DNA of 64,000 nt from Ignavibacteria bacterium RIFOXYB12_FULL_35_14 (lineage in GTDB: Bacteria > Bacteroidota > Ignavibacteria > Ignavibacteriales > Ignavibacteriaceae). The stretch is from positions 3,498 to 67,497 of the forward strand of contig MHAR01000090.1 of the NCBI GenBank assembly GCA_001803045.1. The letters are read 5' to 3'. A program made the translations under genes and the position numbers. Below, piece by piece: positions 35,620 through 53,691 of the stretch. The notes beneath the pieces were generated by a model that ran no database searches, had not been told where the DNA came from, and worked only from the letters and a program-made list of their open reading frames with translations. How positions within the stretch are numbered: the first letter of the stretch is position 1; every line of letters starts with the position of its first letter.

Positions 35620-35635
35620 TGGCACATTTTTTTCT
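35620..35635 (+). promoter_or_regulatory. candidate sigma-54 promoter (TGGCAC-N5-TTTC)
   Basis: TGGCACatttttTTC lies about 45 nt upstream of the pilin-like gene 1 start. The -12 GC is replaced by TC. Confidence 0.3.
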
Positions 35636-35679: not shown

Positions 35680-36063
35680 TTGGGTCAGCAGCAATTATTA
35701 TTAATTCTTCTTGGGATCGTAGTTATTGCAATAGCAGTAGCTATAGGCATAAGCTTGTTCAGGGCTCATGCGATATCCTCAAAACGGGATATACTAACAA
35801 ATGAAACGATTGATATGGCAGCACAAGCAATTGGCTATTACAAAAGAGCAAGAGAATTTGGCGGAGGAGGTAAGTCATTTATTGGCTGGCAAATTCCTCC
35901 TCAATTACAAAACACGGTTAATGGCTCATACGTTATTGATGCAATTAATAAAGATGAAGTGGTGATAATTGCAACAGGAACTGAAGTGGTAACCGGGAGC
36001 GATTCAATACAGGTTAAAACGACAGTTTACTCGGATAACTATCAAATAGAAGTAATTCACTAA
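35680..36063 (+). CDS. type IV pilin-like protein 1 (atypical, TTG start, no leader)
   Basis: (M)GQQQLLLILLGIVVIAIAVAIGISLF hydrophobic N-terminus, GGGG run, 127 aa. An in-frame TGA lies two codons upstream. No clear SD, so it may be weakly expressed. Confidence 0.5.
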   Translation: MGQQQLLLILLGIVVIAIAVAIGISLFRAHAISSKRDILTNETIDMAAQAIGYYKRAREFGGGGKSFIGWQIPPQLQNTVNGSYVIDAINKDEVVIIATGTEVVTGSDSIQVKTTVYSDNYQIEVIH

Positions 36064-36129
36064 TTAACAGAATGGATAAAATTTTAATCCATCTTATAAC
36101 TAACAATAAACTAAAATAGGAGATCTAAA

Positions 36130-36510
36130 ATGGGTCAACAGCAGCTTCTTTTAATCGTGCTCGGCGTTATCGTAGTAGGTATCGCAGTAGTTGTGGGTAT
36201 CAACTTGTTTAATGCTAACGCAGTTTCTTCAAACAGAGACGGAGTAGTTTCTGATTTGAATAACTTAGGTGCAATGGGGCAACAGTACTACAAGAAACCA
36301 ACTTCAATGGGAGGCGGCGGAAACACATTCACTGGCTGGACGCTTCCTGCAGAATTAGATACAACTGCAAACGGAAATTATGTACTGACAGTAAATGCAC
36401 AGTCACTTACAATTGAAGGATACGGAACTGAACTAGCGCCTAACGGAAGCAAGATAAACCACACAGCCACAGTGGGACCGTCCTCAATAACAGTGGTAAA
36501 AACTAACTAA
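36130..36510 (+). CDS. type IV pilin-like protein 2 (atypical, no prepilin leader)
   Basis: AGGAG SD, then ATG. In-frame TAA at 36112-36114. MGQQQLLLIVLGVIVVGIAVVVGINLF, followed by an amphipathic segment and a Thr/Asn/Gly-rich C-terminal half. 126 aa. Confidence 0.65.
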   Translation: MGQQQLLLIVLGVIVVGIAVVVGINLFNANAVSSNRDGVVSDLNNLGAMGQQYYKKPTSMGGGGNTFTGWTLPAELDTTANGNYVLTVNAQSLTIEGYGTELAPNGSKINHTATVGPSSITVVKTN

Positions 36511-36561
36511 TCACATGATAGTTGGAAAATTAAATTAAATTTAATTTAATAAATTCTTAAG

Positions 36562-36596
36562 GGCTGGTAAAACAAGTTTGTATTATCAGCCTTTTT
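36562..36596 (+). terminator. candidate intrinsic terminator after pilin-like gene 2
   Basis: ggctg...cagcc stem followed by tttttacttttt. The homologous site after pilin 3 (about 37423-37460) has a stem mismatch and an interrupted T-tract. Confidence 0.4.
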
Positions 36597-36614
36597 ACTT
36601 TTTAAAGGTGAAAA

Positions 36615-36744
36615 ATGATTGTAGTCAAATTTGCAATTGAAAAACAAGACCGATAGACCCTAAGCTGCTAGTTATCGGTTTTTTTATTCGGAGAGGGTAG
36701 GAAAAGAAATCAAAAGTATTTGGCAGAAGAGGTAAATCATATAC
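36615..36744 (+). pseudogene. decayed 5' fragment of the pilC-like gene
   Basis: atgattgtagtcaaatttgcaattgaaaaacaagaccgatag aligns to the pilC start at 37475 (atgattgaagtcaaatttacagcagaaaagcaagacgga) but contains stops. Confidence 0.65.
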
Positions 36745-36923
36745 CGGCTGGTAGATTCTAGCACGGATTCGAGTCATAGTGAATAACTTTTACACCAATA
36801 ATAAAATCAATGATGATAAGATGGGGTAATTACAACTGGCACTGAAGTTGTTAGCAGAGATGATGAAATGCAAGTTAAGACAATAGTTTACGCAGATAGT
36901 ATCAGTTGGCAGTAATTTGCTAA
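36745..36923 (+). pseudogene. decayed 3' fragment of a pilin-1-like gene
   Basis: Aligns to 35884-36063 (ggctggtagattc... versus ggctggcaaattcc...; ...actgaagttgttagc versus actgaagtggtaacc) and has in-frame stops. Confidence 0.6.
36837..36852 (+). promoter_or_regulatory. candidate sigma-54 promoter (TGGCAC-N5-TTGT)
   Basis: TGGCACtgaagTTGT lies about 140 nt upstream of pilin-like gene 3, inside the decayed pilin fragment. The homologous site in the intact gene (aggaactgaagtggt) lacks the motif. Confidence 0.35.
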
Positions 36924-36992
36924 TTCATAGAATGGATAAAATTTAAATCCACCAATAACTGGTAATCAATAAGAAAATATAGGAAATCTACA

Positions 36993-37373
36993 ATGGGTCA
37001 ACAGCAGCTTCTCTTAATTGTGCTTGGCGTTATCGTAGTGGGTATCGCAATAGCAATTGGTATTACTTTGTTTAGTGCTAACGCTGTATCTGCAAACAGA
37101 GACGGAGTAGTTTCTGATTTAAATCACTTGGGTGCAATGGCGCAGCAGTTCTACAAAAAACCAACCTCACAGGGCGGCGGTGGAAACGCATTCACAGGCT
37201 GGACACTTCCTGAAGAATTAGATACAACTGCAAACGGAAATTATGTGCTGACCGTAAATGCACAGTCAGTTACAATCCAAGGATATGGAACTGAGTTAGC
37301 GACTAACGGAAGTAAGATAAACCATACAGCAACAGTAGTGCCCTTTGCTGTAACAGTGGCAAAAACTAACTAA
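36993..37373 (+). CDS. type IV pilin-like protein 3 (atypical, no prepilin leader)
   Basis: About 86 percent aa identity to protein 2 by my count. AGGAA, then ATG. In-frame TAA at 36963-36965 with no ATG/GTG/TTG between it and the start. Confidence 0.65.
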   Translation: MGQQQLLLIVLGVIVVGIAIAIGITLFSANAVSANRDGVVSDLNHLGAMAQQFYKKPTSQGGGGNAFTGWTLPEELDTTANGNYVLTVNAQSVTIQGYGTELATNGSKINHTATVVPFAVTVAKTN

Positions 37374-37474
37374 TCAAATGATTGTTAGAAAATTAAATTT
37401 AAACCAGTTTAATAATCTTTTAGGGCCGAAAAACAGTTTGTATTTTCAGCCCCTCTACTTTTTAAAGGTGAAAA

Positions 37475-38848
37475 ATGATTGAAGTCAAATTTACAGCAGA
37501 AAAGCAAGACGGACAGGCAATAAGCGGTTCACTATCGGTTTCCTCTTATGGTGAGGGGAAGAAAAAAATTCAACGTCTTGCCGAGAAAAATCATTTGAAA
37601 ATAAAAGCAATTGAGCGTAAGGTAACCTATCTCTACAAAGCCAGGAAAGGTACAGATAAACCAATTAGGGGCGAACAAAAAGCATATTCAAAAAAAGAGG
37701 TAGATGATGCTTTAACTAGATTGGGTTTTAAAGTTCTGTCCGTCAATCGTAAATTAATTGACTTTCAAAGAAAACCACCAACGGCTGAAATAGTAACTTT
37801 TGTCAAAATCAGTGCAGAACTCTTGGAACAGAAACTTGCTTATGGCGAAATATTATCGCTTCTGATAAATGATACTCAGAACAAAACTCTTAAGGATACA
37901 TTAAAGGAAATTAATAATGATCTAAAAAAGGGTGCTGATAGTGAGGCAACATTCTTGAAGTATCAAAATGTTTTCGGAAAGTTCACTGCTTACATGCTTG
38001 GACTGGCTTCTAAAAGCGGTAACATGTCTGAAATTTATAAAGCCACTGCTAAATTTTTAGAGAGACGACAGGAATTCAAAAAGAGTTTAAGAAGTGCTTT
38101 AATAACTCCAGCAGTTACAATATTTGTCTTATTCTTAGCGGTTGTGTTTTATGTTGGATACATCTTTCCGGAAACAGCTAAACTATTCGTAAAATTTGGA
38201 ATCGAGCTTCCGCCAATGACAGCGTTTACCCTAAAGATGAGTGATTTTCTTACAAGTTATATTTTAATTATCATGGGATTAGCCGCAATACCACCGATTG
38301 TTCTTTGGCAAATGTCGAAAACTAAAAAGGGAGGAATAATTCTTGGGCGGATGATGTTGAAATTGCCTGTAATGGGTTCGCTCATACACAAAACATTAAT
38401 TGAGGTTTTTTGCAGAGTATTTTATACTCTTTACAGCGGTTCGGCTGAGAGTATCGAACCGATTAGAATTGCATCAGAGGCAGCAGGTAATAAATATTTC
38501 GAAGACCGAATAAAAAATGTTGCTATTCCATTAATGCTTAAGAAAGGGACAGGACTTACAGAGGCATTCGAAGCTTCCGGAGTTTTTACAGAAACAGCAC
38601 TATCAAGATTGCATTCAGGCGAAGAAACCGGAACGGTTAAAAACACTTCGCTGCAGCTTGCAAATTATTATGAAAGTGAAACTGTTTACCGTTTGAAAAA
38701 CTTGATTGAAGTGATTCAGGTAGCAATTGCGATGATAATAATGGTTGTAATGATTCTCTTGACATTAGTATCTGCAGAAACGGCTACAGTAAGACCGCCG
38801 ACACCTGGAGCATCAAATCAAATTAATGTTGAAAGAAATATAGGATGA
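37475..38848 (+). CDS. pilC: type IV pilus / T2SS platform protein (PilC/GspF family)
   Basis: Two GspF-type repeats, each ending in a TM pair (…GNMSEIYKATAKFLERRQEFKKSL… and …GEETGTVKNTSLQLANYYESE…). The N-terminal cytoplasmic domain is of the KF.A..QDGQ..SG type. Confidence 0.9.
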   Translation: MIEVKFTAEKQDGQAISGSLSVSSYGEGKKKIQRLAEKNHLKIKAIERKVTYLYKARKGTDKPIRGEQKAYSKKEVDDALTRLGFKVLSVNRKLIDFQRKPPTAEIVTFVKISAELLEQKLAYGEILSLLINDTQNKTLKDTLKEINNDLKKGADSEATFLKYQNVFGKFTAYMLGLASKSGNMSEIYKATAKFLERRQEFKKSLRSALITPAVTIFVLFLAVVFYVGYIFPETAKLFVKFGIELPPMTAFTLKMSDFLTSYILIIMGLAAIPPIVLWQMSKTKKGGIILGRMMLKLPVMGSLIHKTLIEVFCRVFYTLYSGSAESIEPIRIASEAAGNKYFEDRIKNVAIPLMLKKGTGLTEAFEASGVFTETALSRLHSGEETGTVKNTSLQLANYYESETVYRLKNLIEVIQVAIAMIIMVVMILLTLVSAETATVRPPTPGASNQINVERNIG

Positions 38849-40635
38849 TCGAAACCAATCTGGGCATGTCCGATAAAATTGGTTACCTCCTTTTTAAAAA
38901 AGGAATAATCGATACACAAATTCTCGAAAAGTCGCTGAATGTTAAATCGGAAGAGAAGGGGAAAATAAAGCGAAACCTCGCCCAGATATTAGTACAAAAT
39001 TTTGATTTTGATCATGATACAATATTTAAAGAAGTTGCAATACTTTATGCTTTCCGCGAACTTGAATTACCGGAAGGTGAGCCATTACAACATAAAATTG
39101 AAACAATAAAACAAGCGGTTGATAAAGTCAGCGATCAATTAAAACAAATGATGGCTGAGCATAAGGTAATTCCTTATGCTTATGATGAAAGGTTAAGAGA
39201 CAAATTAATTCTCGCAGCAATAGACCCGACCGATCGAAGTATTCCCAAAATAGCTTATGCATTAAATGCCAGGAAATATGAAGTAGTCTTCCTAAAAAAG
39301 AAAGATTTTGATAAAATAAGTCAATCAATACTTCCGGTCGAAAACGTTTACTTAAAAGCAATTGAAGACTCATCAGTGGAAATGGATATTGAAAGCGATG
39401 AAGCGTCTCTTGATGAGCAAGAACTTGATGCCGAAATAAATAAGAGTGCATTAATAAATCTCGTGGAAGGTGCCTTGGTAGAAGGAGTTCGAAAAGATGC
39501 CAGTGATATCCACTTTATACCCAAAGCAGGTCATAAAACCGAAATTCTTATTCGTATAGATGGAAATCTTCAACCATGGCATATCCAGGAAAACACCCTT
39601 CCCGAAGCAGTTGTTGCAGTTATTAAAGATCGTTCAAAAGGAATGGATAGATTTGAAAGAGAAAAAGCACAAGACGGTTTTATCCAGAGAGAGATTGACG
39701 GTCAAATAATAAGATTCAGAGTTTCAGTTCTTCCAATGGTGGGCACTGAATTAAGAAATAAATTTGAAAGCGTAGTAATAAGAATTCTTGATGACCGAAA
39801 GGTTGTTAAAGATTTAAGTAAGCTTGGACTTACGGGCTATGCTCAAGATGCTTTTGTAAAAGCCATCAGTCAGCCGCAAGGAATGGTTATTCTAACAGGA
39901 CCAACTGGAAGCGGTAAGAGTACCACATTAGTTGCAGCACTTTACCAGGTAATTGATCCAAGCGTAAACGTTCTCACCGTAGAAGATCCCGTTGAATATG
40001 TAATTGAAGGTGCCCGTCAGCTTAAAATTGGATACAAGATGGATTTTGAACAGGCAATTAGGTCCATTCTGCGTCATGACCCGGATATTGTTTTGGTGGG
40101 TGAGATGAGAGATAAAGAAACTGCTGAGGTTGCTATAAAGTTGGCAAACACAGGTCACTTGACCTTTTCAACTTTACATACTAATGATGCACCAAGTGCT
40201 GTTGCCAGATTGTATAAAATGGGTATTGAGCCGTTTTTAATTGCGTATGCAATAAACATCATAATGGCACAAAGGTTAGTTCGCAAATTATGCGAAGCTT
40301 GTAAAACAAAGGTTACTAAACTGGATGAGGATTTATTGTCAGCTGCTGGTATAGATATTAATGAATTAAAAAAGCATACAATCTTTGCAGCAAAAGGATG
40401 TGATAAATGTCATGGAACTGGTTACAAAGGTAGAATGGCGATACACGAAGCACTTTATTTCACAAAAGAAATACGACAAATCATCGTGCGCTCAGGTATT
40501 GAAGTCGATGAAGAGAAGATAAGAATTCAAGCTAAAAAAGACGGTTCAAAATCATTAAGAGACTCTGGAATAGAAAAAGTAATGTTGGGTCTTTCCTCGA
40601 TAGAAGAGGTACTTGCTTCAACTACCGACGAGTAG
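38845..40635 (+). CDS. pilB: type IV pilus assembly ATPase (PilB/GspE family)
   Basis: Walker A GPTGSGKST, GEMRD (Walker B/Asp box), TGHLTFSTLHTND His box, tetracysteine CEACK...CDKCHGTGYKGR, and a GSPII_E N-terminal domain. Confidence 0.9.
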   Translation: MIETNLGMSDKIGYLLFKKGIIDTQILEKSLNVKSEEKGKIKRNLAQILVQNFDFDHDTIFKEVAILYAFRELELPEGEPLQHKIETIKQAVDKVSDQLKQMMAEHKVIPYAYDERLRDKLILAAIDPTDRSIPKIAYALNARKYEVVFLKKKDFDKISQSILPVENVYLKAIEDSSVEMDIESDEASLDEQELDAEINKSALINLVEGALVEGVRKDASDIHFIPKAGHKTEILIRIDGNLQPWHIQENTLPEAVVAVIKDRSKGMDRFEREKAQDGFIQREIDGQIIRFRVSVLPMVGTELRNKFESVVIRILDDRKVVKDLSKLGLTGYAQDAFVKAISQPQGMVILTGPTGSGKSTTLVAALYQVIDPSVNVLTVEDPVEYVIEGARQLKIGYKMDFEQAIRSILRHDPDIVLVGEMRDKETAEVAIKLANTGHLTFSTLHTNDAPSAVARLYKMGIEPFLIAYAINIIMAQRLVRKLCEACKTKVTKLDEDLLSAAGIDINELKKHTIFAAKGCDKCHGTGYKGRMAIHEALYFTKEIRQIIVRSGIEVDEEKIRIQAKKDGSKSLRDSGIEKVMLGLSSIEEVLASTTDE

Positions 40636-40730
40636 TATCCCTTTTACTAAGGTAATAATTACTAAGAATTGCTTTCGATTTCGCAATAAATTTATATCAC
40701 TGACTGGAATTTACTTGCATAAAATTTGAT

Positions 40731-42053
40731 TTGAATCCTACGGCACAGATACTTAAAAACAAAATTAAAGGCAATAGTGTGGCAGTCCAAGCTCTAGATC
40801 AAGTTCCTTCGAAAAGGAAAGCAATTCCTGTAGAAGAAGTAAAAAGAGTTCTTTCGGAATTTACTGAAAGCATTCCGGGCGACCTGAGAGGTCCTGATAA
40901 AGTTCTATATCTTTTCGAAAACAGTGTGAAGCTTCCAACCGAGAGCAAAGTACTATTGAAAGAGTACTTTGATCATTTATTAATTAATATGATTGAGCGA
41001 GATGCCTCTGACATTGAAATCGGTGGGCATGGCAACGAGGGGTATATATGGTTTAGGATTTATGGAATTAAAGAAAGAGCAATGGACCTGCCTCGTTTTA
41101 CCGAAGATGAATCTACAATGATCATCATCAATTTATTAAATGCCAACCAAAAGAAATATATATCGGTCGCCAAAAATCTTGATTTCAGTTACTCATGCTA
41201 TTACGAAAGGAAAAAGTTAAACATTCGTTTCAGAGCAGATGCATACTTTGAGCTTGATACTCTTGCCCTAAACATGCGTGCAATCAATTTGAATATAAGG
41301 CCTCTCGACTCACTTGGCTTTCATCCAAACGTTGTAAGAGTAATGAGCCATAGCTACATCAAGTTTGGCTTATCGTTAATAACAGGAATTACCGGTTCGG
41401 GTAAATCGACTACGCTTGATGCGATAATTGATGAGCATAATAAGTGCGATCCGGCACATGTTATTGTTATTGCTTCGCCTATAGAATATGTACATCGTTC
41501 GAACAAATGTATAATTAAACACAGAGAAGTTGGCAGAGATGTCATCTCTTTTAAAGATGGTGTTATTCAAGCGATGAGACAGGATCCGGATATTATAGTA
41601 ATTGGTGAAATGAGAGATCCCGAAACAATTTTAGCAGCACTTGAAGTTACCGATACGGGGCATAAAGTGTTCTCAACTCTCCATACTTCATCTGCGGTTG
41701 AATCAATTGATAGAATTGTTGCTGAGGTTAATCCTCATGAACAGGAGAGAGTAAGACATAGATTGGCTGATGTTTTAGTGTCCATAGTCTCACAAAAATT
41801 GCTTCCGGGTGTAGATGGTAAATTAGTCTTAGCAAAGGAAGTATTGGTAGTTACCCCCAGTGTAAAAGCCGCAATTAAGAACAATACCACAAGTGAAATT
41901 TACCTTATGATAAATCAAGGCGGCCCAATGGGTATGTTGACAATGGAACAAGATTTGAGGCGATTATATCTGAATAAAAAAATATCATTGGAAAATGCCA
42001 TTGCATATGCCAATAATAAAACAAGAATTCAACAACTTTTATCGGCTATCTAA
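40731..42053 (+). CDS. pilT: PilT-like retraction ATPase with ~100-aa N-terminal extension
   Basis: Walker A GITGSGKSTT, IGEMRDPETI, GHKVFSTLHTSSAVESIDRI. It lacks the Zn-binding Cys motif, as PilT/PilU do. TTG start. Confidence 0.8.
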   Translation: MNPTAQILKNKIKGNSVAVQALDQVPSKRKAIPVEEVKRVLSEFTESIPGDLRGPDKVLYLFENSVKLPTESKVLLKEYFDHLLINMIERDASDIEIGGHGNEGYIWFRIYGIKERAMDLPRFTEDESTMIIINLLNANQKKYISVAKNLDFSYSCYYERKKLNIRFRADAYFELDTLALNMRAINLNIRPLDSLGFHPNVVRVMSHSYIKFGLSLITGITGSGKSTTLDAIIDEHNKCDPAHVIVIASPIEYVHRSNKCIIKHREVGRDVISFKDGVIQAMRQDPDIIVIGEMRDPETILAALEVTDTGHKVFSTLHTSSAVESIDRIVAEVNPHEQERVRHRLADVLVSIVSQKLLPGVDGKLVLAKEVLVVTPSVKAAIKNNTTSEIYLMINQGGPMGMLTMEQDLRRLYLNKKISLENAIAYANNKTRIQQLLSAI

Positions 42054-43600
42054 TGAAACCTATTGTATGTGTATTTTGCGAAGGCAATGACACAAAAATT
42101 GCTGTCGTAGAAAAAGAAAAAGAAAAAATTAGAGTCCTCATAACTGGTTCGTATAATGTGATTCAACCTCCCGTTGTGGTAACCGAAGGTATTACAAATC
42201 TTAGAGTTGATACTGACGATCTTTCTTTTGAAGATTTGGATAAAGCATCTCCTATTACTGATGTAGAAGTGGTTAGCACTTCTGGTTTAGCATTAATAAG
42301 TACATCTCTCAAAGGAATTAATCTGAATAACAGCGTATTTATTCCGATTCTTACCGAACCAGTGCTTCATTACCATGTTTATGAGGGAAGTAAATTAGGC
42401 AAATCATCAAAATTCACTCAAGAGCTTATTAGAGATATTTATGAAACCAAGAACATAACAGTAAGCAAAGATGAATTAGCGTTTGTTGAACTTGCTGATA
42501 AATCTTCTCTGGCTGTTTTTCTTAACGGAGAAATAAGCTGTGTTAAATTGATAAACTCTCTTGCCGGATATAACGGTAAAAAGTTTTACAAAATACCAAC
42601 AATTAAAAGTGCTGAAATATCACTTGCAAATTATGTTGCTAAGAAAAAGAAATTTTTCCCCGATGATCAATCTCTTATTGTATATATCGGTAAAGAGTAT
42701 AGCAAGCTTATCTTTTTACAAGGAAGAAAATTAAAGCACATTGGTACAACGCTTGATATTGGTACCACAAACCTACACACTTACGATGTTTACTTCTCCA
42801 AAATTTTACTTGAAATGGATAATGGCGGTATAACATCACTTGATAATATAATTGTTTGCGGTGAAGATGATTCTGAAAATTTAATTCTTTCTTTTTATGG
42901 TACCTTTCCCGAAGCCAATGTTTCTAGATTAGAATTTGATGAGATAGATTATTCATTATTGAGCACCGAAGCTCAAACCTCAATTTCTGCATACAGCATA
43001 ATGCTGGCTATAGCAAATGAATACTTCGACGATCAAGTACAAAAACACTCGGAGAGTATAAACCTTTTACCAAGATATGTTAAAGAAGAACAGAAGGTAT
43101 TTCAGTTTGCATGGCACGGTTATGCTATTCTTCCATTATTATTTGGAGCAACTTTCTTTTTAACACTTCAGATACTGATGAACAATAAAAAGGTTAATGA
43201 ATTAGAAAAAGAAATTGCACAGCAAACGGTATTGCTTAGGCAGAATCAGGAAATACTTGGGCGTATTGCAGCCCTTGAAAGCAAGATAAGCGGATTTGGT
43301 CAAACTCAGGCAATATTAGATTCTGCATCCGTTGGAACTGGTGTTTGGTCAAAAGTAACAGAACATTTTTCTGATTTCTTTGGAGCTAAACAAAATATTT
43401 GGCTTACAAAGGCAGGTGCAGATGGGAATAACATAGCTCTGGAAGGTTTCACATTATCAAAGCTATCGCCAACAGAATTTGCATACTCAATCGATGGTTC
43501 GGAATTGAAAGGAATTTATTTCGAATCGATTCGTGAGAAAAACGCTTATCGTTTTAACCTAAATTTTAATCTATCACAATTTCCCAAAGTGACACAATGA
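42053..43600 (+). CDS. PilM-PilN fusion-like alignment protein
   Basis: The N-terminal ~340 aa has actin-like segments (VYIGKEYSKLIFL...LDIGTTNL). It is followed by the INLLPRY motif, a TM helix and a coiled coil, which is the PilN hallmark. Confidence 0.6.
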   Translation: MKPIVCVFCEGNDTKIAVVEKEKEKIRVLITGSYNVIQPPVVVTEGITNLRVDTDDLSFEDLDKASPITDVEVVSTSGLALISTSLKGINLNNSVFIPILTEPVLHYHVYEGSKLGKSSKFTQELIRDIYETKNITVSKDELAFVELADKSSLAVFLNGEISCVKLINSLAGYNGKKFYKIPTIKSAEISLANYVAKKKKFFPDDQSLIVYIGKEYSKLIFLQGRKLKHIGTTLDIGTTNLHTYDVYFSKILLEMDNGGITSLDNIIVCGEDDSENLILSFYGTFPEANVSRLEFDEIDYSLLSTEAQTSISAYSIMLAIANEYFDDQVQKHSESINLLPRYVKEEQKVFQFAWHGYAILPLLFGATFFLTLQILMNNKKVNELEKEIAQQTVLLRQNQEILGRIAALESKISGFGQTQAILDSASVGTGVWSKVTEHFSDFFGAKQNIWLTKAGADGNNIALEGFTLSKLSPTEFAYSIDGSELKGIYFESIREKNAYRFNLNFNLSQFPKVTQ

Positions 43601-44490
43601 ACAGGAAACTAAAAAATACGTTTGCTCTTGCAGGGCTGTTGTTATTTATTTTGATAGCCGGTGGAGTATATATTTTAATTTTACAACGCGGTGAATTGTC
43701 CGCTAAAGAAGAAAAACTAAGAGAATTAAAGGCAAATGATTATAACACAGAGCAATTAACTCTTCAATATGAAGATCTTTACCAAAGATCTGTAGTTCTC
43801 GATTCAGTACTTGCAGCTAGAAAATTTAATATTCCACAAAATCTATCTTCCATAAAATTTTATGATTTCGTAACTCGGTTAACTAATTTACTAACTGAAG
43901 ATACAAAGATTGATGTTGAATATGGAGAACAAAAACAAGAGCGAGATTTTTATTACTACGAGTATAAAGTTAAAGGTATAGCCCCTTACAACGATCTATA
44001 CAAATTCATTTATGGAATTGAACAAAGCAAAGAGCTTAAGAAAATTACATCGATCACTCTAGGAAGTCTTGTTAAAAATGAAAAAGAGGAAGGTCCGAAA
44101 TTCCTTGTTGCTTTTGCGTTCGTTGTTCATGTTTATTTTTCGAACGATAATCGTTTTGCCACAGCAGAGTTTGTAGAAAACAACCTATCAGCGCGCCCTT
44201 TGTATGATGCATTCTATCCATTACTTAGAAACGAAATTCCTTTAAATACCGAAGGTCTACTTGATATTCAGGGTGCAAAACTTCTGGCACTTGTACCTGA
44301 AGGTGCATTTCTAGCGGACGCAACTGGCAGTACATTCTTACTGTGGGAAGGTGAACCAGTTTACCTTGGGTATTTGACCAGCATCGATTATAAAAATAAT
44401 AAGGTGAAGTTTATTATTAACAGGGGCGGTGTAATCGAAAAAGTAGAGTTGTTTTTGGAAAAAGAAGAAGCAAATAAGAAAAATAAATGA
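43597..44490 (+). CDS. PilO-like protein with PilP-like C-terminal beta domain (possible fusion)
   Basis: N-terminal TM helix plus coiled coil (PilO layout). The C-terminal LLALVPEGAFLADATGSTFLLWEGEPVYLGYLTSIDYKNNKVKFII resembles the PilP/GspC HR-type beta-sandwich. Confidence 0.45.
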   Translation: MNRKLKNTFALAGLLLFILIAGGVYILILQRGELSAKEEKLRELKANDYNTEQLTLQYEDLYQRSVVLDSVLAARKFNIPQNLSSIKFYDFVTRLTNLLTEDTKIDVEYGEQKQERDFYYYEYKVKGIAPYNDLYKFIYGIEQSKELKKITSITLGSLVKNEKEEGPKFLVAFAFVVHVYFSNDNRFATAEFVENNLSARPLYDAFYPLLRNEIPLNTEGLLDIQGAKLLALVPEGAFLADATGSTFLLWEGEPVYLGYLTSIDYKNNKVKFIINRGGVIEKVELFLEKEEANKKNK

Positions 44491-45734
44491 GAGTAGAAAT
44501 TATGAAAACAGTAATATTATCATTGGTGTTGTTTTCGTTTGTCACTGTAACTGGATTATCTCAGCAATACCTTGAAAGGCAATTCAAGGGTTATATAAAT
44601 CCAGATGAGTTAGTTACTATGTCCGCAAATCTGCCATTTGACCAAGCAGTTGATCTCCTAAGCAAGGTTAGCGAGAGCTTGAGAGGAAAAAGGATAGTAT
44701 CAACCTACCAAAGCTCGGAACCAATCGGGTTAGAAATCGAGAACATGCAATATGAAAAGGCATTGGTTGTTTTGGTTCAGTATCGTGGATTAATGTATGA
44801 AGAAAAAGAAGATGTAGTCATTATTAAAAAGAGGGGCGAGAAAATAGATAATAGAACAGCCGAAAATTATGTCTCTGTTGATTCGCGAGAAGTAAAAATT
44901 TCAGCTGTATTCTTTGAAATGGATGTTAATGAGGCGCGGAAACGTGGGGTAGATTGGAAACTAATTTTTGAAAAGAAGGGATTAGACATAGGCGGACTTT
45001 TAGGTGTAGATAAAACCAAGACTCAAAGTCAAGGAACAAGCACTTTGCAAGAACCAACTTTTGATCTGGGCGTAGCCGGCGATTTTAATATAGGTAATTT
45101 CTTCGGTGAAGCCACGGCAATATTTAAGTTTTTTGAAACTGAAAATATAGGAGAAGTAATTGCAAGTCCTACGATAGTTGTTCGAGATGGTCGCCCGGGA
45201 AGAATTCAGGTTGGTTCGGATATATCTATTAAGCAAAAAGATTTTGCGGGAAACGTTATCGAGAATTTTTTCTCAACCGGTACAATCATTAATGTAACAC
45301 CTTATGTAATCAATGAAGAGGGTGTGGACTATACCCTCTTAAAAATTATTGCCGAAAGAAGCACCTTCGTGCCCGATCCATCTAATACTATAATCAATAA
45401 AACCCAAGCTTCTACGGAAGTTATTATGCTTAATGGTGAAGAAACTGTGATAGGTGGATTATTTGTAAATGATGAGGTAAAAATACGTTCAGGTGTCCCG
45501 ATTCTTAAAGATCTTCCGTGGTATGTATTAGGACTTAGGTATATCTTTGGTTCAGATGAGGTTCGGTTAAGTAAAAAAGAACTTGTAATTCTTCTTAAAG
45601 CAGAACTTGTTCCAGCATTGAAAGATCGCTTAGCCGGCACAAGCTCTACTACTCCTGTTCGTGATGAAGTTTTAAAACAGAGAGAAAAATTAAAAATGTA
45701 TCAATTCAATCAACAATTTGGTAACGGGAATTAG
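44487..45734 (+). CDS. secretin (short PilQ/GspD family)
   Basis: The C-terminal secretin core reads VIASPTIVVRDGRPGRIQVG...TEVIMLNGEETVIGGL...SGVPILKDLPWYVLGLRYIFG. The signal peptide begins at the internal MKTVILSL, so an alternative start at 44502 is possible. Confidence 0.8.
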   Translation: MRVEIMKTVILSLVLFSFVTVTGLSQQYLERQFKGYINPDELVTMSANLPFDQAVDLLSKVSESLRGKRIVSTYQSSEPIGLEIENMQYEKALVVLVQYRGLMYEEKEDVVIIKKRGEKIDNRTAENYVSVDSREVKISAVFFEMDVNEARKRGVDWKLIFEKKGLDIGGLLGVDKTKTQSQGTSTLQEPTFDLGVAGDFNIGNFFGEATAIFKFFETENIGEVIASPTIVVRDGRPGRIQVGSDISIKQKDFAGNVIENFFSTGTIINVTPYVINEEGVDYTLLKIIAERSTFVPDPSNTIINKTQASTEVIMLNGEETVIGGLFVNDEVKIRSGVPILKDLPWYVLGLRYIFGSDEVRLSKKELVILLKAELVPALKDRLAGTSSTTPVRDEVLKQREKLKMYQFNQQFGNGN

Positions 45735-45743
45735 AGCCTGTTT

Positions 45744-46109
45744 ATGGAATCAATTTTAATTGTTGATGACGATTTAGGAGTATGCACAACTTTAAAGGAA
45801 GAGCTGGCTGAAGTTGGTTACGAAGCAGATTTTCTTTTAAGAGGTACAGAAGTATATGATTATCTGAAAACCAATTCGGTTGATCTTATACTTCTGGATT
45901 TAGTACTGCCCGAAAAAGACGGTTATGAGGTTTTAAAAGAAATCTCGGAAAATAAATTTGATGTGAAAGTTGTAGTATTAACAGCATATGCCGATGTGAA
46001 GAGTGCTATCGATTCGGCAAGGCTTGGTGCGAGTGATTTTATTAGTAAACCATATGATTTAGATGAATTACTAATAACAATTCGTAAGGTTCTGCAGCGA
46101 GATGATTAG
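45744..46109 (+). CDS. single-domain response regulator (CheY-like)
   Basis: DD...D (LILLDLVLPEKDG)...T...K receiver motifs, 121 aa. Confidence 0.85.
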   Translation: MESILIVDDDLGVCTTLKEELAEVGYEADFLLRGTEVYDYLKTNSVDLILLDLVLPEKDGYEVLKEISENKFDVKVVVLTAYADVKSAIDSARLGASDFISKPYDLDELLITIRKVLQRDD

Positions 46110-46111
46110 TA

Positions 46112-49100
46112 ATGAAAATAAGCTACCGAATACTTTTTATTAACTTTTTTGTTGTAGTATTAATTATAGGAAGCGCCTCCTTTGCTTTCTATTCCATAAT
46201 GTATAATGTTCTTACCAGTCAACAATCCAAATATCTACTTAAATCCTCCAATGATTTTATTTTTGCATACAATGAAACTTTTCAGAACACAGAAGATGAT
46301 TTTAATCAATTATCAAGAACAGAATTATTTTCTGGGGAAAGATTAAAATCTACCAGCATTGATTTTATCCTGGAACAAGATTCAAAAAACGTAAAAATCT
46401 ATTCACGCTCAGTTGTAAAAGCGGGAGTAAATCTCTCGCAAAAGTTCTCGTCGCTTGAAGAATTCATCAGCAATAATCCATCGGCAGTAATTAAAAGCCA
46501 TACATTTCCGGATGGAACTTCGGTTTATTATGGTCGTTTGCTTACGGATGAGTTCCTTAATTCCATTGCTCAAAAAATAAATGCTCAAGTTGTAATCATA
46601 ACAGGCAACTCAACACTGCAGGTATCAAATCAGTCGGCTAATCAGCAGTACATTTACTTTCTGAATAAAGCCTATAATAATTTATCCCGGCGAGAAAAAT
46701 TTAATGTTTATTCTGAAGATTCAGGTCAAGCTGATATCATATCAACACTTTGCAATATTTCGTCTAATATAAATGAAAATCAAAACCTCAAATTCCTAAT
46801 ATTCTCAACACTGAATGAAGCGGCAGATTTACGATCTAGCATTAAGTATATTTTAATCACAGTTGGAATAGCAGGTGTATTACTTTCACTCATTTTGACT
46901 TTCATGTTTACGCAAAAAATTAGAAGTCAGCTTCATTTGTTAAGTAATGCAACTGAACTTACAAAACAGGGAAACTTCAAAAATAAAATCGAAATTAAAT
47001 CAAATGATGAAATCGGACAATTAGCTTCGGCCTTTAACAACATGCTTGACGAGCTAGATAAACATGATCGAGCAATTACGGACTATTCCGATTTTATTGC
47101 TCTCATCAATAGAAATGCTTCTTTAAAGGAAATTGCAGATGCGGCATTGAATAAAATTATTAAAACGTGTGGATTTGCCGTCGGTGCAATCTATGCAGTA
47201 AAAGGCAGTTCCATTACGCTGATTCGTTCGTATGGTATTAAAGGAAAAACCGCCGCGGAAGATTATGAGTTTTTCGATTCAGCAATTAAGAATCGTGAAA
47301 TGCTCGAGCTTAATTTTGAAAAGAATTTTCCGACAGTTTCATCGGGAATTATCTCTCTTGAAATCAAGCACATGCTGTTGATTCCAATTATTTATAACAA
47401 CGAGGTAATTGCACTTCTGGAACTTGGCGGTTTGGATAGTCCATCTCAGGCAGTAAAGAATTACCTATCAAAGATTCAAGAACAGCTTGCGATTGGCTTA
47501 ACAAATGCTTTTGCATTTGTGCAGCTTGAAAATCTTGTTGTTGAGTTGAAGCTTTTGAATGAAGAATATCAAAAACAGAATCAACAGGTAAAGCAGCAAA
47601 ACGAATCATTAATAAAATTACACGATCAGCTCAGGGATAAAGCACGCGAACTTGAAGTTCAAAAATTGAGAGCTGAGGAATCTACAAAGCTAAAATCCCA
47701 ATTCCTGGCAAGTATGTCTCATGAGCTGCGAACTCCAATGAATTCTGTACTTGGATTAACAGAGCTAATACTCGATGAATCAACGTTATTAAACCCCAAA
47801 ACTAAAGAACGGTTGGAAATTGTTCATCGCAGCGGTAAACGTTTAATGAGTTTGATAAATGATATTTTAGATCTGTCCAAAATCGAGGCGGGGAAAATGG
47901 ATCTTAAACACGATGACGTTCTGCTCGAGGATATAATTCTTGATCTGGAAGCTTCAATAAGGCCATTAGTTGTAAAAAAGCATTTAGAACTTAAGATTGT
48001 TAGGAAAGCAAACACAAATGTTTTCATTGCTACCGACAGAGGAAAAGTAACTCAAGTTTTAATCAACTTACTGGGCAACGCAATTAAGTTTACTGAGCGG
48101 GGATTTGTTGAGCTTCATGTGGATGATTTGGGTGAAAATCAATTAAGATTTGATGTTGTTGATTCGGGAATAGGAATATCGATTGAAGATCAGAAAATAA
48201 TTTTTGAAGAATTCAGGCAGATAGATGGAACTGCCGCGCGAAAATACAGCGGCACAGGTTTAGGATTATCAATCTGTAAAAAAATTGCAGAGATGCTTAA
48301 CGGTTCGTTAAGCGTTGAAAGTCAGCTTAACAAGGGTTCGGTTTTCTCATTCATAATTCCTTTTAAAGTTTCATCAGAAAAAGAGCGACAAAAACAATCC
48401 GTTAATGTTGAAACCTTGAGGAAGAATAGAAAAAATCCAATCCTGGTAATTGATGATGATGCCGATATTAGAATTACTATTGGGCAATACTTGGAATCAA
48501 GGGGCTACAAAGTTGTTTATGCCGATAATGGTGCAAGCGGTGTTAATCTTGCAAAAGAACTGCAGCCGTTTGCAATAACTTTAGATTTGCTATTGCCTAA
48601 CAAAGATGGCTGGACCGTTCTTAAAGAATTGAAAGAGAATCCTGCAACTAAGAATATACCGGTTATTTTAGTTTCCATTATTGGCGATAAAAATCTTGGT
48701 TACGGGCTTGGAGCTTTCGAATATTTCGTAAAGCCAATATCACACAATGAGCTACTTTCAGCATTTAACAAACTAGAGAATTACGCTAGAAAAAAAATAG
48801 AAAAAATTATTTTGGTTGATGATGATGAATTAGAATTTGAGAGATTCAAGCGAGTATTGCATAATGATGGGGTTACCGTTCATTTTATTAAAGATAGTCA
48901 GTTTGCGTTTAATAAGATAGTTGATATTCAGCCCGATCTAATTGTTCTTGATTTACTTATGCCCGGAATAGATGGAATTACACTGACGCATGAACTAAGA
49001 AATTATAAAGAAACCAAACACATACCGATAATTATCAGCACAGCAAAAGATTTAAATGATGAAGAAAAAAATTCGCTTCGGCATATTGTTGAAGACATTA

Positions 49101-49660
49101 CGGTAAAATCTAAAGGTCATCCTCACGATGTTCTAAAAATTGTTAGAGATAGGATAAGAATGGATGAACTTTCATACTATGTTGAAGATACCGCAGGAAA
49201 ACAGCCTTTGGAAGAGATAGAAATTCTGAGTGACCAGATTCGGAATGTTTCTTTAGATGAAAAAAAAAACCGCAAAGAATTGCTCGGAGAAGTTTTAATT
49301 GTTGATGATGACCCTGACACTTTGTTCACAATCAATGAAATCGTTCAATCGTGCAATTGCACAACTTTTGTTGCTAAAAACGGACTTGAATGCCTTAACA
49401 TCTTAGAAAAAAATTTACCCGATCTTATTTTACTTGATATCATGATGCCGGAGATGGATGGTTTTCAGACCATAAAAAAAATACGCGAAAACTCAAATTG
49501 GAGGCATGTACCGGTTTTTGCAGTCACGGCACGCGCTATGCTGGAAGATCGGCAGATCATCCTTAAAAATGGATTTGATGATTATATAACTAAACCTGTC
49601 AATGCAGGGGTTATTTCATTCAAAATTGAAAAATTATTTTCAAAGATAAGGGCAACATAA
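46112..49660 (+). CDS. hybrid sensor histidine kinase: 2 TM + extracytoplasmic domain, HAMP, GAF, HisKA, HATPase, three receiver domains
   Basis: H-box SHELRTPMNSVLG, N/G boxes (NLLGNAIKFT, DSGIGI, GTGLGLSI), and three REC modules with LDLLLPNKDG, LDLLMPGIDG and LDIMMPEMDG. Confidence 0.9.
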   Translation: MKISYRILFINFFVVVLIIGSASFAFYSIMYNVLTSQQSKYLLKSSNDFIFAYNETFQNTEDDFNQLSRTELFSGERLKSTSIDFILEQDSKNVKIYSRSVVKAGVNLSQKFSSLEEFISNNPSAVIKSHTFPDGTSVYYGRLLTDEFLNSIAQKINAQVVIITGNSTLQVSNQSANQQYIYFLNKAYNNLSRREKFNVYSEDSGQADIISTLCNISSNINENQNLKFLIFSTLNEAADLRSSIKYILITVGIAGVLLSLILTFMFTQKIRSQLHLLSNATELTKQGNFKNKIEIKSNDEIGQLASAFNNMLDELDKHDRAITDYSDFIALINRNASLKEIADAALNKIIKTCGFAVGAIYAVKGSSITLIRSYGIKGKTAAEDYEFFDSAIKNREMLELNFEKNFPTVSSGIISLEIKHMLLIPIIYNNEVIALLELGGLDSPSQAVKNYLSKIQEQLAIGLTNAFAFVQLENLVVELKLLNEEYQKQNQQVKQQNESLIKLHDQLRDKARELEVQKLRAEESTKLKSQFLASMSHELRTPMNSVLGLTELILDESTLLNPKTKERLEIVHRSGKRLMSLINDILDLSKIEAGKMDLKHDDVLLEDIILDLEASIRPLVVKKHLELKIVRKANTNVFIATDRGKVTQVLINLLGNAIKFTERGFVELHVDDLGENQLRFDVVDSGIGISIEDQKIIFEEFRQIDGTAARKYSGTGLGLSICKKIAEMLNGSLSVESQLNKGSVFSFIIPFKVSSEKERQKQSVNVETLRKNRKNPILVIDDDADIRITIGQYLESRGYKVVYADNGASGVNLAKELQPFAITLDLLLPNKDGWTVLKELKENPATKNIPVILVSIIGDKNLGYGLGAFEYFVKPISHNELLSAFNKLENYARKKIEKIILVDDDELEFERFKRVLHNDGVTVHFIKDSQFAFNKIVDIQPDLIVLDLLMPGIDGITLTHELRNYKETKHIPIIISTAKDLNDEEKNSLRHIVEDITVKSKGHPHDVLKIVRDRIRMDELSYYVEDTAGKQPLEEIEILSDQIRNVSLDEKKNRKELLGEVLIVDDDPDTLFTINEIVQSCNCTTFVAKNGLECLNILEKNLPDLILLDIMMPEMDGFQTIKKIRENSNWRHVPVFAVTARAMLEDRQIILKNGFDDYITKPVNAGVISFKIEKLFSKIRAT

Positions 49661-49661
49661 T

Positions 49662-50363
49662 ATGAAACGAATATTGGTTATAGATGACTTACCTGAAAAT
49701 GTATTTATGCTTCAAGATCGGCTCGAAAATGAAGGTTATGAAGTAGTAACAGCTTACGACGGAAAAACCGGTATTGCCAAGGCAACAAACGATATGCCCG
49801 ATCTTATTCTTTTAGATGTTATGATGCCTGAAATGACAGGTATAGAAGTTTGTAAAATTCTTAAACAAGATCCCGGTACAGCAGACATTCCAATAATAAT
49901 TGTTACAGCTAAATCCGGTGCTGATGATGCTAAAGAGGGATTAGATGCCGGAGCATTGGATTACATCAAGAAGCCATTTGAAAAAGTAGAAATGTTAGCA
50001 AGAATAAATTCAGCTTTGAGATTGGCAGAAGCACATAAGCAAGTTATTGAAGCTGAAAAAAGAAGCACCTATGCGGCTACCGTTGTAACCACTAATCATA
50101 AAATTAAACAGCCGCTAACATTGATGAGCCTTTCTTCTGCGGCGATTAAGAGAGAATTAAATAAAGAACAGATTTCTAAAGAAGCAATCTTAAATCGGTT
50201 GAATTATATTGAAACAGCAATTAATGAGATTACTAACATTCTTAATCAGCTTAATGCAATAAAAAAACCACAGACTTCAGAGTATGCAAAAAATGTAAGG
50301 ATGGTAGAGGTTGAAAAGGATTCTGCGGAAAATTTCTCAGATAAACTTGCGGATAGTGGATAG
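49662..50363 (+). CDS. response regulator receiver fused to a DHp/H-box-like helical domain (no ATPase domain)
   Basis: REC motifs (LLDVMMPEMTG, VTAK, KP), then NHKIKQPLTLM, which resembles an SHELRTPL-type H-box, and helical sequence to the C-terminus. Confidence 0.7.
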   Translation: MKRILVIDDLPENVFMLQDRLENEGYEVVTAYDGKTGIAKATNDMPDLILLDVMMPEMTGIEVCKILKQDPGTADIPIIIVTAKSGADDAKEGLDAGALDYIKKPFEKVEMLARINSALRLAEAHKQVIEAEKRSTYAATVVTTNHKIKQPLTLMSLSSAAIKRELNKEQISKEAILNRLNYIETAINEITNILNQLNAIKKPQTSEYAKNVRMVEVEKDSAENFSDKLADSG

Positions 50364-52316: not shown

Positions 52317-52320
52317 TTCG

Positions 52321-53691
52321 TTAGTCTTGCCTGATCTCGTATTTTTTAATTTTTGTATAAAGTGTTTTAGGACTGATGCCAAGCTGGTTAGCTGTCTGAG
52401 TTCTATCCCACTTGTTAAGTTTAAGAATTTTTGCGATATGATGCTTTTCCATCTCGTCCATACTAAGTATTTCAGCTATGCGAATATTCTCTTCATTCAT
52501 TAGCGGCTGTGATGCCCTTGCGGTTGCACTTACAGGAAGATTGAGGTCGTCCGGTTCAATTAGTTCGCCTTCCGAGAAAATTATTGCCCGCTCAATTGTG
52601 TGTTCAAGCTCGCGGACATTGCCGGGAAAATTATAATTCAGAAGAGTCAATTCGGATTTTGGCGAAAGATTTTTTGGCGATCTTATTGGTGATTTTGCTT
52701 CAAGAAAAAATTTAGCAAGTACCGGTATATCATCTCTTCGATCTCTTAGCGGAGGAATTGTTAGCGTTATAACATTCAAGCGGAAGAGTAAATCACGTCT
52801 AAAATTTTTATTATCAGCTTCTTCTAAAAGATTTCTGTTCGTTGCCCCAATTACTCTAACATTAGAATTGAGATTTGCAACTCCACCGATCCTTCTGTAT
52901 TCACCATTCTCAAGAAAGCGTAAAAGTTTGGGTTGAAGCGATAAGCTCATTTCACCAATTTCATCTAAGAATAAAGTGCCGCCATTGGCTATCTCTACTA
53001 AACCTTGTTTTGTATTTTTTGCATCTGTAAAGGCTCCGCGCTCATGTCCGAAAAGTTCGCTTTCAATTAATTGATCGGGAAGCGAGGCACAGTTGATTAC
53101 AACAAATGGTTTGTCTGCACGGGTGGAATGTTTATGGATATATTCGGCAAAAAGCTCTTTACCGGTACCGGTTTCTCCTTCAATAAGAATGTTTGAATCG
53201 GACATAGCGGCTTTACTGGCAAGATTAATAATTCTTTGAAGCTGCGGGCTATCGCCTACAATGTTATGAGGAAGTTTTTTATTTACAATATCTGTGAGAA
53301 CAGTATTCTTAACTAAAAGAGATTTATGATCTGCCGCATTATTTATTGTCACCAGCAATTCGTCAAAATCGTAAGGTTTAGTAATGTAATCATAGGCACC
53401 CATTTTTATGCAATCTATAGCTTTGCGAATTTCATTTTGTGCTGTGAGGATAACAACAATTAAAGACGGGTTATAATCATTTACAAACTTTAGAACTTCT
53501 TCTCCGGGAACTTCCTGCATATTCAAATCAAGAAGAAGCATATCATAATTTTTACGTTTAATTGCTTCTATAGCGTATTTACCGTCATAAACGGTATCAA
53601 CCGAGAAACCCTCTTCAAGAAGCTGTTCCTTCAGAAGATAGCTTAGGGTTTCATCATCATCACAGACTAAAATTTTTGAATTTTTAGACAT
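52321..53691 (-). CDS. sigma-54-dependent response regulator (NtrC/PilR-type enhancer-binding protein)
   Basis: REC domain, AAA+ core with GETGTGKE, the sigma-54 contact loop variant GAFTDA, an ESELFGHE-type segment and a C-terminal Fis-type HTH ([20 protein letters not shown]). Confidence 0.9.

Follow-up and report, generated by a model that had tools for sequence, protein, structure and literature searches.

We analysed a candidate type IV filament locus in a 64,000-nucleotide stretch (hereafter, the window) of contig MHAR01000090.1 from Ignavibacteria bacterium RIFOXYB12_FULL_35_14. The window has a G+C content of approximately 35% and is matched by contigs of the Ignavibacteriaceae metagenome-assembled genome (MAG) GCA_036796855.1 and of a JGI metagenome. 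An earlier reading of this DNA, made from the letters and a list of open reading frames (ORFs) only (the sequence-only reading), had placed nine co-directional genes between positions 35680 and 45734, and all nine ORFs are found there on the + strand in the ORF calls of the window (Table 1). Their products are three small pilin-like paralogues (from the genes referred to here as pil1, pil2 and pil3), a PilC platform protein, the ATPases PilB and PilT, a PilM-PilN fusion of 515 aa, a PilO-like protein of 297 aa and a secretin. The pilC and pilB genes overlap by 4 nt, pilT and the gene for the 515-aa protein by 1 nt, and overlaps of 4 nt join the latter to the gene for the 297-aa protein and that gene to the secretin gene. 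The larger intergenic gaps separate pil2 from pil3 (482 nt), pil3 from pilC (101 nt) and pilB from pilT (95 nt).

The most unusual feature of the locus, which the sequence-only reading had missed, is that its pilin-like proteins have essentially no leader. The three proteins belong to one family (40–84% identity, with pil1 approximately 40% identical to both pil2 and pil3), and all three start with MGQQQLLLI(V/L)LG; across the family, the N-terminus is the nearly invariant MGQQQLLLIVLG at residue 1. In pil1, a stop codon lies two codons 5' of the start, with AAC alone in between. For each of the three window pilins, the nearest upstream stop codon is only a few codons away, without any in-frame start before the assigned one, and a longer reading frame is therefore impossible. 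The family comprises 5147 homologues in a 90%-clustered database and 1784 clusters at 50% identity. Among 131 divergent representatives, Met1 is conserved in 129, Gly2 in 130, Gln3 in 120, Gln4 in 122 and Gln5 in 127, and each of the positions Leu6 to Ile9 in at least 117; a pattern of glycines at positions 12, 17 and 23 is also conserved, as is Phe27, and 87 of the 131 carry no charged residue within the first 28 positions. The hydrophobic stretch that follows Met-Gly is present and highly conserved, and the protein is laid out as a hydrophobic N-terminal helix of ~25 residues and a head of ~100 residues. The first 27 residues are strongly conserved, whereas identity over the full length is below 50%, and this N-terminal conservation mirrors the α1N helix of type IV pilins. 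The family has neither Phe1 nor Glu5, and its leader is no longer than Met-Gly. Searches of Pfam and NCBIfam at E ≤ 0.1, which included N_methyl and TIGR02532, gave no match for the three pilins or for 48 family members. The suggestion of the sequence-only reading that these pilins are non-canonical thus agrees with both the missing hidden Markov model (HMM) matches and the missing Glu5. Some family members are named PilE in IMG.

Table 1. Features of the locus and their positions in the window.
Feature	Position	Strand	Basis or remark
TGGCAY box (TGGCACATTTTTTTC)	35620..35634	+	~60 nt upstream of pil1
pil1-type pilin-like protein, 127 aa	35680..36063	+	ORF; TTG start, no good ribosome-binding site
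pil2-type pilin-like protein, 126 aa	36130..36510	+	ORF; strong GGAG ribosome-binding site, terminator after the gene
Decayed tandem duplicate	36511..36992	+	Corresponds to the 482-nt pil2-pil3 gap
Intrinsic-terminator-like hairpin and U-tract, 3' of pil2	36559..36602	+	Folding
pil3, 126 aa, apparent recent pil2 duplicate	36993..37373	+	84% identity to pil2
Weaker hairpin and U-rich tail, pil3-pilC	37423..37462	+	ΔG −11.1 kcal/mol, z −2.24
PilC/GspF platform, 457 aa	37475..38848	+	PF00482 T2SSF, E 3.4e-28, above gathering score
PilB-type extension ATPase, 596 aa	38845..40635	+	PF00437 T2SSE, E 6e-104
PilT-type retraction ATPase, 440 aa	40731..42053	+	TIGR01420, 321 bits (cut-off 319.1)
PilM-PilN fusion, 515 aa	42053..43600	+	AlphaFold2 fold, PilN Pfam, INLLP motif
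PilO-like protein with added C-terminal beta domain, 297 aa	43597..44490	+	AlphaFold2 fold
Short secretin, 415 aa (410 aa by gene call)	44487..45734	+	PF00263, E 5.9e-25, residues 217-375
Single-domain response regulator	45744..46109	+	Pfam Response_reg; 9 nt past the secretin gene
Hybrid histidine kinase (HAMP, HisKA, HATPase_c, three receiver stretches)	46112..49660	+	Domains, synteny
Response regulator, 233 aa, resembling the N-terminal part of PleD, without GGDEF	49662..50363	+	Domains, synteny
Hybrid histidine kinase (HisKA, HATPase_c, receiver)	50337..52382	-	Domains, synteny
NtrC-family sigma-54-dependent response regulator	52321..53691	-	Sigma54_activat, E 1e-67; receiver; HTH_8

The head domain also occurs in paralogues, where it sits behind Sec or lipoprotein signal peptides (P0361, P0364, P0368, P0451 and P0489). 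The head is therefore probably extracytoplasmic, and the pilin-like proteins would be oriented with the N-terminus in and the C-terminus out. The same proteins, together with P0387, have the head domain without the hydrophobic helix, matched over two to five stretches at protein lengths of 328–795 aa, and this arrangement suggests that the head has been put to new use as a module of the surface or periplasm.

To place the locus among related genomes, we scanned one genome per GTDB species and found relatives of the 515-aa protein in 239 genomes; the best 80 of the 239 make up the set of related loci, with ~10 kb read around each. All 80 are Ignavibacteria or MAGs named 'Bacteroidetes bacterium'. 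As far as the contigs reach, the 80 genomes keep the order pil1, pil2, pilC, pilB, pilT, the 515-aa PilM-PilN gene, the 297-aa PilO-like gene and the secretin gene, followed by a response regulator, a histidine kinase, a second response regulator, a second histidine kinase and an enhancer-binding activator, with the last two genes (the hybrid kinase and the NtrC-family activator) on the opposite strand. In 49 loci, out of the 58 that have sufficient upstream sequence, the 3 kb upstream of pilC contain between one and three genes of the MGQQQ type, and the remaining loci of the 58 have toxin-antitoxin-like insertions between the pilins and pilC. Small genes at this position, which resemble toxin-antitoxin or nucleotidyltransferase/HEPN genes in their N-terminal sequence, were seen in L020, L030, L043, L044 and L050, and the spacer may be an insertion hotspot. 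Cluster look-ups of the divergent pilins returned no taxa outside Ignavibacteria. As far as seen in these sequence comparisons, the locus is specific to Ignavibacteria and conserved across them.

Four universal parts define the type IV filament superfamily (PMC10191384, PMC6668835): subunits with a class III signal peptide, a platform protein, an assembly ATPase and an A24 peptidase. The class III leader is a hydrophilic stretch of variable length that ends in Gly or Ala (PMC10191384) and is followed by 20–25 hydrophobic residues, in many cases with Glu5. No called gene in the window matched Peptidase_A24 (PF01478) or DiS_P_DiS (PF06750), and the A24 motif GxGD[VAIFLMY][KR] does not occur in the six frames of the window. 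In 1.55 Mb from the 80 related genomes, mostly flanks of the locus, the motif was not found in any membrane-protein context; its one match lies inside a PilM-PilN gene and is a chance occurrence. Likewise, a set of the FimU/PilVWX(E), PilHIJK or PilY1 type was found neither in the window, which holds three paralogues of one pilin family only, nor in the 80 related loci, and no canonical pilin gene was found in these loci. The absence of a prepilin peptidase and of a classical minor-pilin set, as noted in the sequence-only reading, therefore extends from the window to ~10 kb around each of the 80 loci. That reading had also named canonical pilins with PilD just outside the locus as one observation that would overturn it, and none were found there. 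In addition, the complete-genome paper on Melioribacter roseus reported that neither pilA nor pilD was found, as expected if M. roseus carries the Ignavibacteria-type system. We found no paper that describes leaderless pilins or the Ignavibacteria locus, and Ignavibacterium and Melioribacter are absent from the supplements of the type IV filament survey of Denise et al. 2019.

The motor and pore proteins were compared with curated families and solved structures. PilB scores 422 bits against TIGR02538 (PilB) and 381 against the GspE model, and its nearest structures are the PilB chains 5zfr and 5tsg and Myxococcus xanthus PilB in 3jc8 (E ~1e-84), with GspE slightly behind. PilT is nearest to the PilT chains 2ewv, 2gsz and 5zfq (E 1e-61 to 1e-60), and also to Pseudomonas aeruginosa PilT (3jvu). 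Residues 1–75 of PilT (40731–40960) form an N-terminal extension outside both the TIGR01420 match and the solved PilT chains. PilC matches the GspF and PilC models of NCBIfam about equally (138–142 bits), all below their cut-offs. The nearest structure to the secretin is P. aeruginosa PilQ (1.7e-11), followed by GspD; the protein scores 80 bits against TIGR02515 (PilQ family; cut-off 284) and 70 bits against the MshL model (cut-off 250), and the GspD and MshL models align to it from residue ~133. Only the secretin core was found, with no AMIN or other N-terminal Pfam domain detected, and the description of this secretin as short in the sequence-only reading is accordingly accurate. Except for PilT, the motor proteins and the secretin fall below the curated equivalog cut-offs. 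Because the nearest relatives of PilB, PilT and the secretin are those of type IVa pili (T4aP), the locus represents a divergent variant of the T4aP, distinct and clade-wide, rather than the new superfamily branch whose possibility the sequence-only reading had raised.

As had been suggested from the letters, PilM and PilN are truly fused in the 515-aa protein, which descends from these two proteins. An actin-like PilM domain (residues ~1–332) is followed by the motif INLLP (336–340), a long predicted helix (345–413) and a ferredoxin-like PilN core (427–506); the helix would hold a transmembrane (TM) segment and a coiled coil. In a Foldseek search with the AlphaFold2 (AF2) model of this protein, which was built on an alignment of 37 sequences and has a predicted local distance difference test (pLDDT) score of 70.3, the top 6 matches were PilM structures (E 6e-13 to 8e-12), among them 5eou_B (5.9e-13), 2ych_A (TM-score 0.63) and 3jc8_Ma; FtsA came after PilM, and the cytoplasmic domain of GspL was far weaker (1.8e-6). 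At the sequence level, no PilM model of Pfam matched the family. The PilN model PF05137 matched 25 of the 37 family members (best E 5.4e-6), with the window protein at 15.1 bits, below the cut-off of 22.8, and the family profile matched M. xanthus PilN (PDB 3jc8) with E 0.008. Within INLLP, Asn337, Leu339 and Pro340 are invariant, and Ile336 and Leu338 are conserved in at least 90%. PilM is an actin-like (ASKHA) ATPase with a groove for the INLLP peptide of PilN, and the motif is the putative PilM-binding peptide of the PilN part.

For the 297-aa protein, the proposal of the sequence-only reading that PilO is fused to PilP stands in its first half: a PilO fold with an extra C-terminal periplasmic domain is present, and the PilP part found no support. 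The protein consists of two helices (3–46 and 51–74), a ferredoxin-like core (83–181), a conserved linker (182–227) and a six-stranded beta domain (228–286). The core has the topology alpha-beta-beta-alpha-beta-beta in the AF2 model (pLDDT 66.8), and the N-terminal helices can be read as a TM helix and a coiled coil. Foldseek matched the model to PilO 2rjz (E 1.9e-3, probability 1.0), to 5uvr (TM-score 0.70, root-mean-square deviation 4.3 over 97 columns) and to the PilO of 3jc8. At the sequence level, the family matched no Pfam or NCBIfam model, including those of PilO, PilP and T2SSC, and no PDB entry. A PilP label for residues 228–286 was rejected, since hhalign against PDB-derived PilP sequences of P. 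aeruginosa, Neisseria meningitidis and M. xanthus gave a probability of 0.2%, no better than the control, and PilP is absent among the top 50 Foldseek matches of the whole model. The resemblance of the beta domain to PilP or to the HR domain of GspC is one of position and size. There is no separate PilP lipoprotein gene at the locus.

The locus also extends further than had been proposed. Downstream of the secretin gene in the window, a response regulator, a hybrid kinase and a second response regulator follow at gaps of 9, 2 and 1 nt. A single-domain response regulator follows the secretin gene in every related locus that extends that far, and an NtrC-family regulator closes the locus in nearly all related genomes. 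Because these conserved regulators adjoin the secretin gene, the functional locus reaches ~53691, past 45734, where the sequence-only reading had taken it to be self-contained. The NtrC-family regulator of the window is analogous to PilR. Upstream of the pilins, a [TC]GGCA[CT] box within 150 nt of the first pilin gene occurs in 40 of 51 related loci, in comparison with 10.6% of random 150-nt windows; in the 64-kb window, the TGGCAY pattern has one match, where ~1.3 are expected by chance. The box resembles the −24 element of a sigma-54 promoter, and together with the co-conserved activator it suggests a PilR-like sigma-54 control of the pilins.

Differences among the pilin genes point to a possible division of labor. 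Orthologues of the pil1 type, whose start codon is often TTG or GTG, occur in many of the related loci, and the pattern of a pil2 gene with a strong ribosome-binding site (RBS) versus a pil1 gene with a weak start recurs in the relatives. From the strong RBS and the terminator, pil2 and pil3 are candidates for the major subunit, and the pil1-type protein represents a second conserved class and is a candidate low-abundance or minor pilin. The hairpin after pil2 has a ΔG of −16.9 kcal/mol and a z-score of −4.37, and none of 200 shuffled sequences equals it. The hairpin between pil3 and pilC may be a leaky terminator. A further hairpin between pil1 and pil2 was dropped, since its stability is like that of shuffled sequence (z −0.38). 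In the gap between pil2 and pil3, the spacer that follows the pilin gene is found again, together with the first ~100 nt of pilC, which end in a stop codon (ATGATTGTAGTCAAATTTGCAATTGAAAAACAAGACCGATAG); behind this copy lies what is left of the 3' half of a pil1-type gene, interrupted by in-frame stops. Direct repeats spaced ~860 nt apart connect 36569–36713 with 37429–37573 (77%) and 36040–36091 with 36900–36951 (83%). Judging from these repeats, pil3 is the surviving copy of pil2.

We consider it probable that the genes of the locus specify a retractile pilus machine, type IVa-like, specific to Ignavibacteria and conserved across them, with leaderless subunits whose N-terminus would arise independently of a prepilin peptidase. 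In such a machine, PilB would drive extension and PilT retraction, both acting on the PilC platform. One chain would carry the cytoplasmic PilM domain together with the membrane and periplasmic parts of PilN, and this fusion would pair with the PilO-like protein. The beta domain on its long conserved linker may reach the N-terminal domains of the minimal secretin, which is classically the job of PilP. The filament would be polymerised from the small MGQQQ proteins, with the pil2 type as the major subunit and the pil1 type as a second subunit present at a low level. Without a leader beyond Met-Gly, the mature N-terminus would most likely be produced by ordinary methionine removal and not by an A24 peptidase. 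Expression is probably under the control of the co-conserved two-component and sigma-54 activator genes. A more specific version, in which methionine aminopeptidase would act on Met-Gly, Gln3 to Gln5 would replace the chemistry of Phe1 and Glu5, and this would be the first type IV filament lineage free of A24, a peptidase otherwise considered universal, is advanced tentatively, as an idea that we favor somewhat less than its negation.

Compared with the T4aP of M. xanthus, P. aeruginosa and Geobacter, the Ignavibacteria locus has in common PilB, PilT, PilC, the folds of PilM, PilN and PilO, a secretin core of the PilQ type, an NtrC-family activator and the INLLP motif of PilN, which is kept in the fusion. 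It differs in that PilM and PilN form one chain, PilO has an extra beta domain and PilP was not detected; in that the secretin has 415 aa without a detected AMIN domain; in that the pilins have no Phe1, no Glu5 and no match to the N-methylation motif; and in that PilD and FimU/PilVWXE/PilY1 are not in or near the locus. In addition, the classical T4aP genes are scattered, whereas those of Ignavibacteria lie in one operon-like cluster.

Several observations weigh against the interpretation of the locus as a leaderless pilus machine. Profile comparisons gave no proof of homology between the small proteins and canonical pilins. A PDB search with the pilin profile gave only weak alignments to α1 helices (geopilin, E 0.19 and 0.46; PilE1, E 1.3), so that the best match has E of at least 0.19, and hhalign of the profile against canonical pilins of the PAK type was not significant (probability 1.8%). 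With no Glu5 and no positive charge before the helix, topology and assembly chemistry depart from the textbook pattern. The PilP-like role of the beta domain has neither a sequence nor a fold match behind it, and both AF2 models are of moderate confidence only (pLDDT 70 and 67). The GC expected at −12 in a sigma-54 promoter is missing and not conserved, and because of this we put forward sigma-54 control as a proposal only. Finally, 'MG' could equally be a minimal leader, with Gly2 at −1, that is cut by a peptidase encoded elsewhere. By sequence, Gly2 is equally compatible with methionine aminopeptidase, which would leave Gly at the N-terminus, and with a cut after Gly.

This last point leads to the alternative that we take most seriously, although we judge it unlikely: an ordinary T4aP with its genes at several loci, in which PilD and FimU/PilVWX/PilY1 would be encoded elsewhere and 'MG' would be the shortest class III leader, with Gln at +1. 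The nearly invariant Gly2 would suit such a leader, but a leader of two uncharged residues lies, to our knowledge, outside those that have been described, and N_methyl and TIGR02532 are unmatched. A class III leader need only end in Gly or Ala (PMC10191384). The genes of T4aP are typically scattered, their peptidase may occur as a 'loner', and the loci of MSH (mannose-sensitive haemagglutinin) pili are likewise without one (PMC6668835); yet no A24 motif lies within ~10 kb of the locus in 80 genomes, and the analysis of the complete M. roseus genome found no pilD. The motor proteins are of the T4aP type, whereas the fused alignment proteins are unlike the standard layout of PilM, PilN, PilO and PilP. 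Orphan pilin paralogues do occur elsewhere in related genomes. One such family member, which starts with MGTKELLF, lies at 10001–10390 of L085 (ENA ERZ25039500 contig_51598), beside arginine-biosynthesis genes and far from pilus machinery; related genomes therefore contain additional, dispersed paralogues of the pilins that may be minor pilins.

A second alternative is that the locus encodes a machine like a type II secretion system (T2SS) or of the competence type, with a short periplasmic pseudopilus for secretion or DNA uptake, similar to the 'T2SS' of Bacteroidetes; we regard this as improbable. The layout of the fused PilM-PilN is that of GspL, the known single-chain equivalent of PilM plus PilN, and GspM corresponds to PilO (PMC4471445); the same layout is found in BfpC of type IVb pili. 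However, the cytoplasmic domain of the Ignavibacteria fusion is nearer to PilM (E 6e-13) than to that of GspL (E 2e-6), and INLLP is kept. In the T2SS, GspC joins the inner-membrane complex to the N0 domain of the secretin by means of a small beta (HR) domain (PMC4471445); GspC is a separate protein, whereas the linker domain of Ignavibacteria is fused to the equivalent of PilO or GspM. The short secretin scores about equally against PilQ and GspD models, but the PilB model outscores that of GspE, and the operon, unlike a T2SS, contains a PilT, which exceeds the PilT/PilU family cut-off. Signatures of GspG (PF08334), GspC, GspL and GspM were not found among the locus proteins, nor were pseudopilins of the GspG type. 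Furthermore, the putative major-pilin gene has features of high expression (a strong RBS and its own terminator) that are typical of a fibre subunit.

Bacteroidetes and Ignavibacteria are both members of the FCB superphylum, and the M. roseus genome paper puts this organism in the 'Bacteroidetes/Chlorobi group'. The Bacteroidetes 'T2SS' is derived from T4aP, functions in secretion (PMC5553014; PMC6668835) and groups with T4aP, apart from other T2SS, in published trees (PMC6668835). With the Cytophaga hutchinsonii system (chu_3191-3201), the Ignavibacteria locus shares the clustering at a single locus and alignment proteins too divergent for Pfam. The Cytophaga cluster includes the Peptidase_A24 protein CHU_3197 together with GspG as a recognisable major pseudopilin and several minor ones, and PilT is not among its listed components (PMC5553014). 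Identity with this system was therefore rejected, because the Ignavibacteria locus is the opposite in each respect, with neither an A24 peptidase nor a recognisable GspG and with a PilT. The MSH pilus (Vibrio MshA) similarly occupies a single locus without a peptidase (PMC6668835) and has a fairly short secretin, whereas its pilins bear canonical class III signal peptides and the peptidase is borrowed from another system. Besides the MshL model, no Msh-specific families were reported for the nine proteins in Pfam and NCBIfam.

It is least credible of all that the small proteins are unrelated single-pass membrane proteins linked to the locus, with real, canonical pilins encoded elsewhere: a pilin HMM or significant profile match and Glu5 are indeed lacking, but these proteins sit directly upstream of pilC, the usual place of pilA, in 49 of 58 genomes, are pilin-like in size, N-terminal hydrophobic helix and tandem paralogy, mirror pilin α1N in the conservation of their first 27 residues, show PDB similarities confined to pilin α1 helices, are in part named PilE in IMG, and have no canonical pilin gene beside them in any of the 80 loci.

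If the reading of the locus as a leaderless pilus is true, the system may be the first type IV filament without a prepilin peptidase, and one would have to ask whether assembly mechanistically needs leader cleavage and N-methylation. It would also raise the questions of how leaderless pilins enter the membrane in the correct orientation and of what replaces the salt bridge between Glu5 and the N-terminus, and it would account for the 'incomplete' pilus gene sets in Ignavibacteria genome papers. A family of over 5,000 pilin-like proteins escapes current detectors (PilFind, the pilin profiles of TXSScan and Pfam N_methyl). Through the natural PilM-PilN and PilO-plus-domain fusions, stoichiometry and orientation are set within the alignment complex, which makes these fusions useful structurally. 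Adhesion and biofilm formation are important in the habitats where Ignavibacteria abound, namely sediments, hot springs and wastewater or anammox reactors.

Several neighbouring genes were also noted. A divergent gene just upstream of the pilins (33559–35184, - strand) codes for a polytopic membrane protein of 541 aa, which matches NF041481, a model of terminal beta-(1->2)-arabinofuranosyltransferase, with E 2e-21, far below the cut-off. This family is of the GT-C type, like TfpW, which arabinosylates the group IV pilins of P. aeruginosa, and the 541-aa protein could, from this resemblance, glycosylate the pilins. Adjacency of its gene to the pilin genes is confined to a few of the related genomes (L017, L024 and L055). 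Unrelated to the pilus locus, a 926-aa type IIL restriction-modification enzyme of the MmeI family, with all MmeI Pfam domains, is encoded at 16797–19577 (- strand). Two proteins at 55306–56136 and 56793–57677 have weak matches to Por_Secre_tail, the C-terminal sorting domain of the type IX secretion system, which suggests that the organism also has this secretion system.

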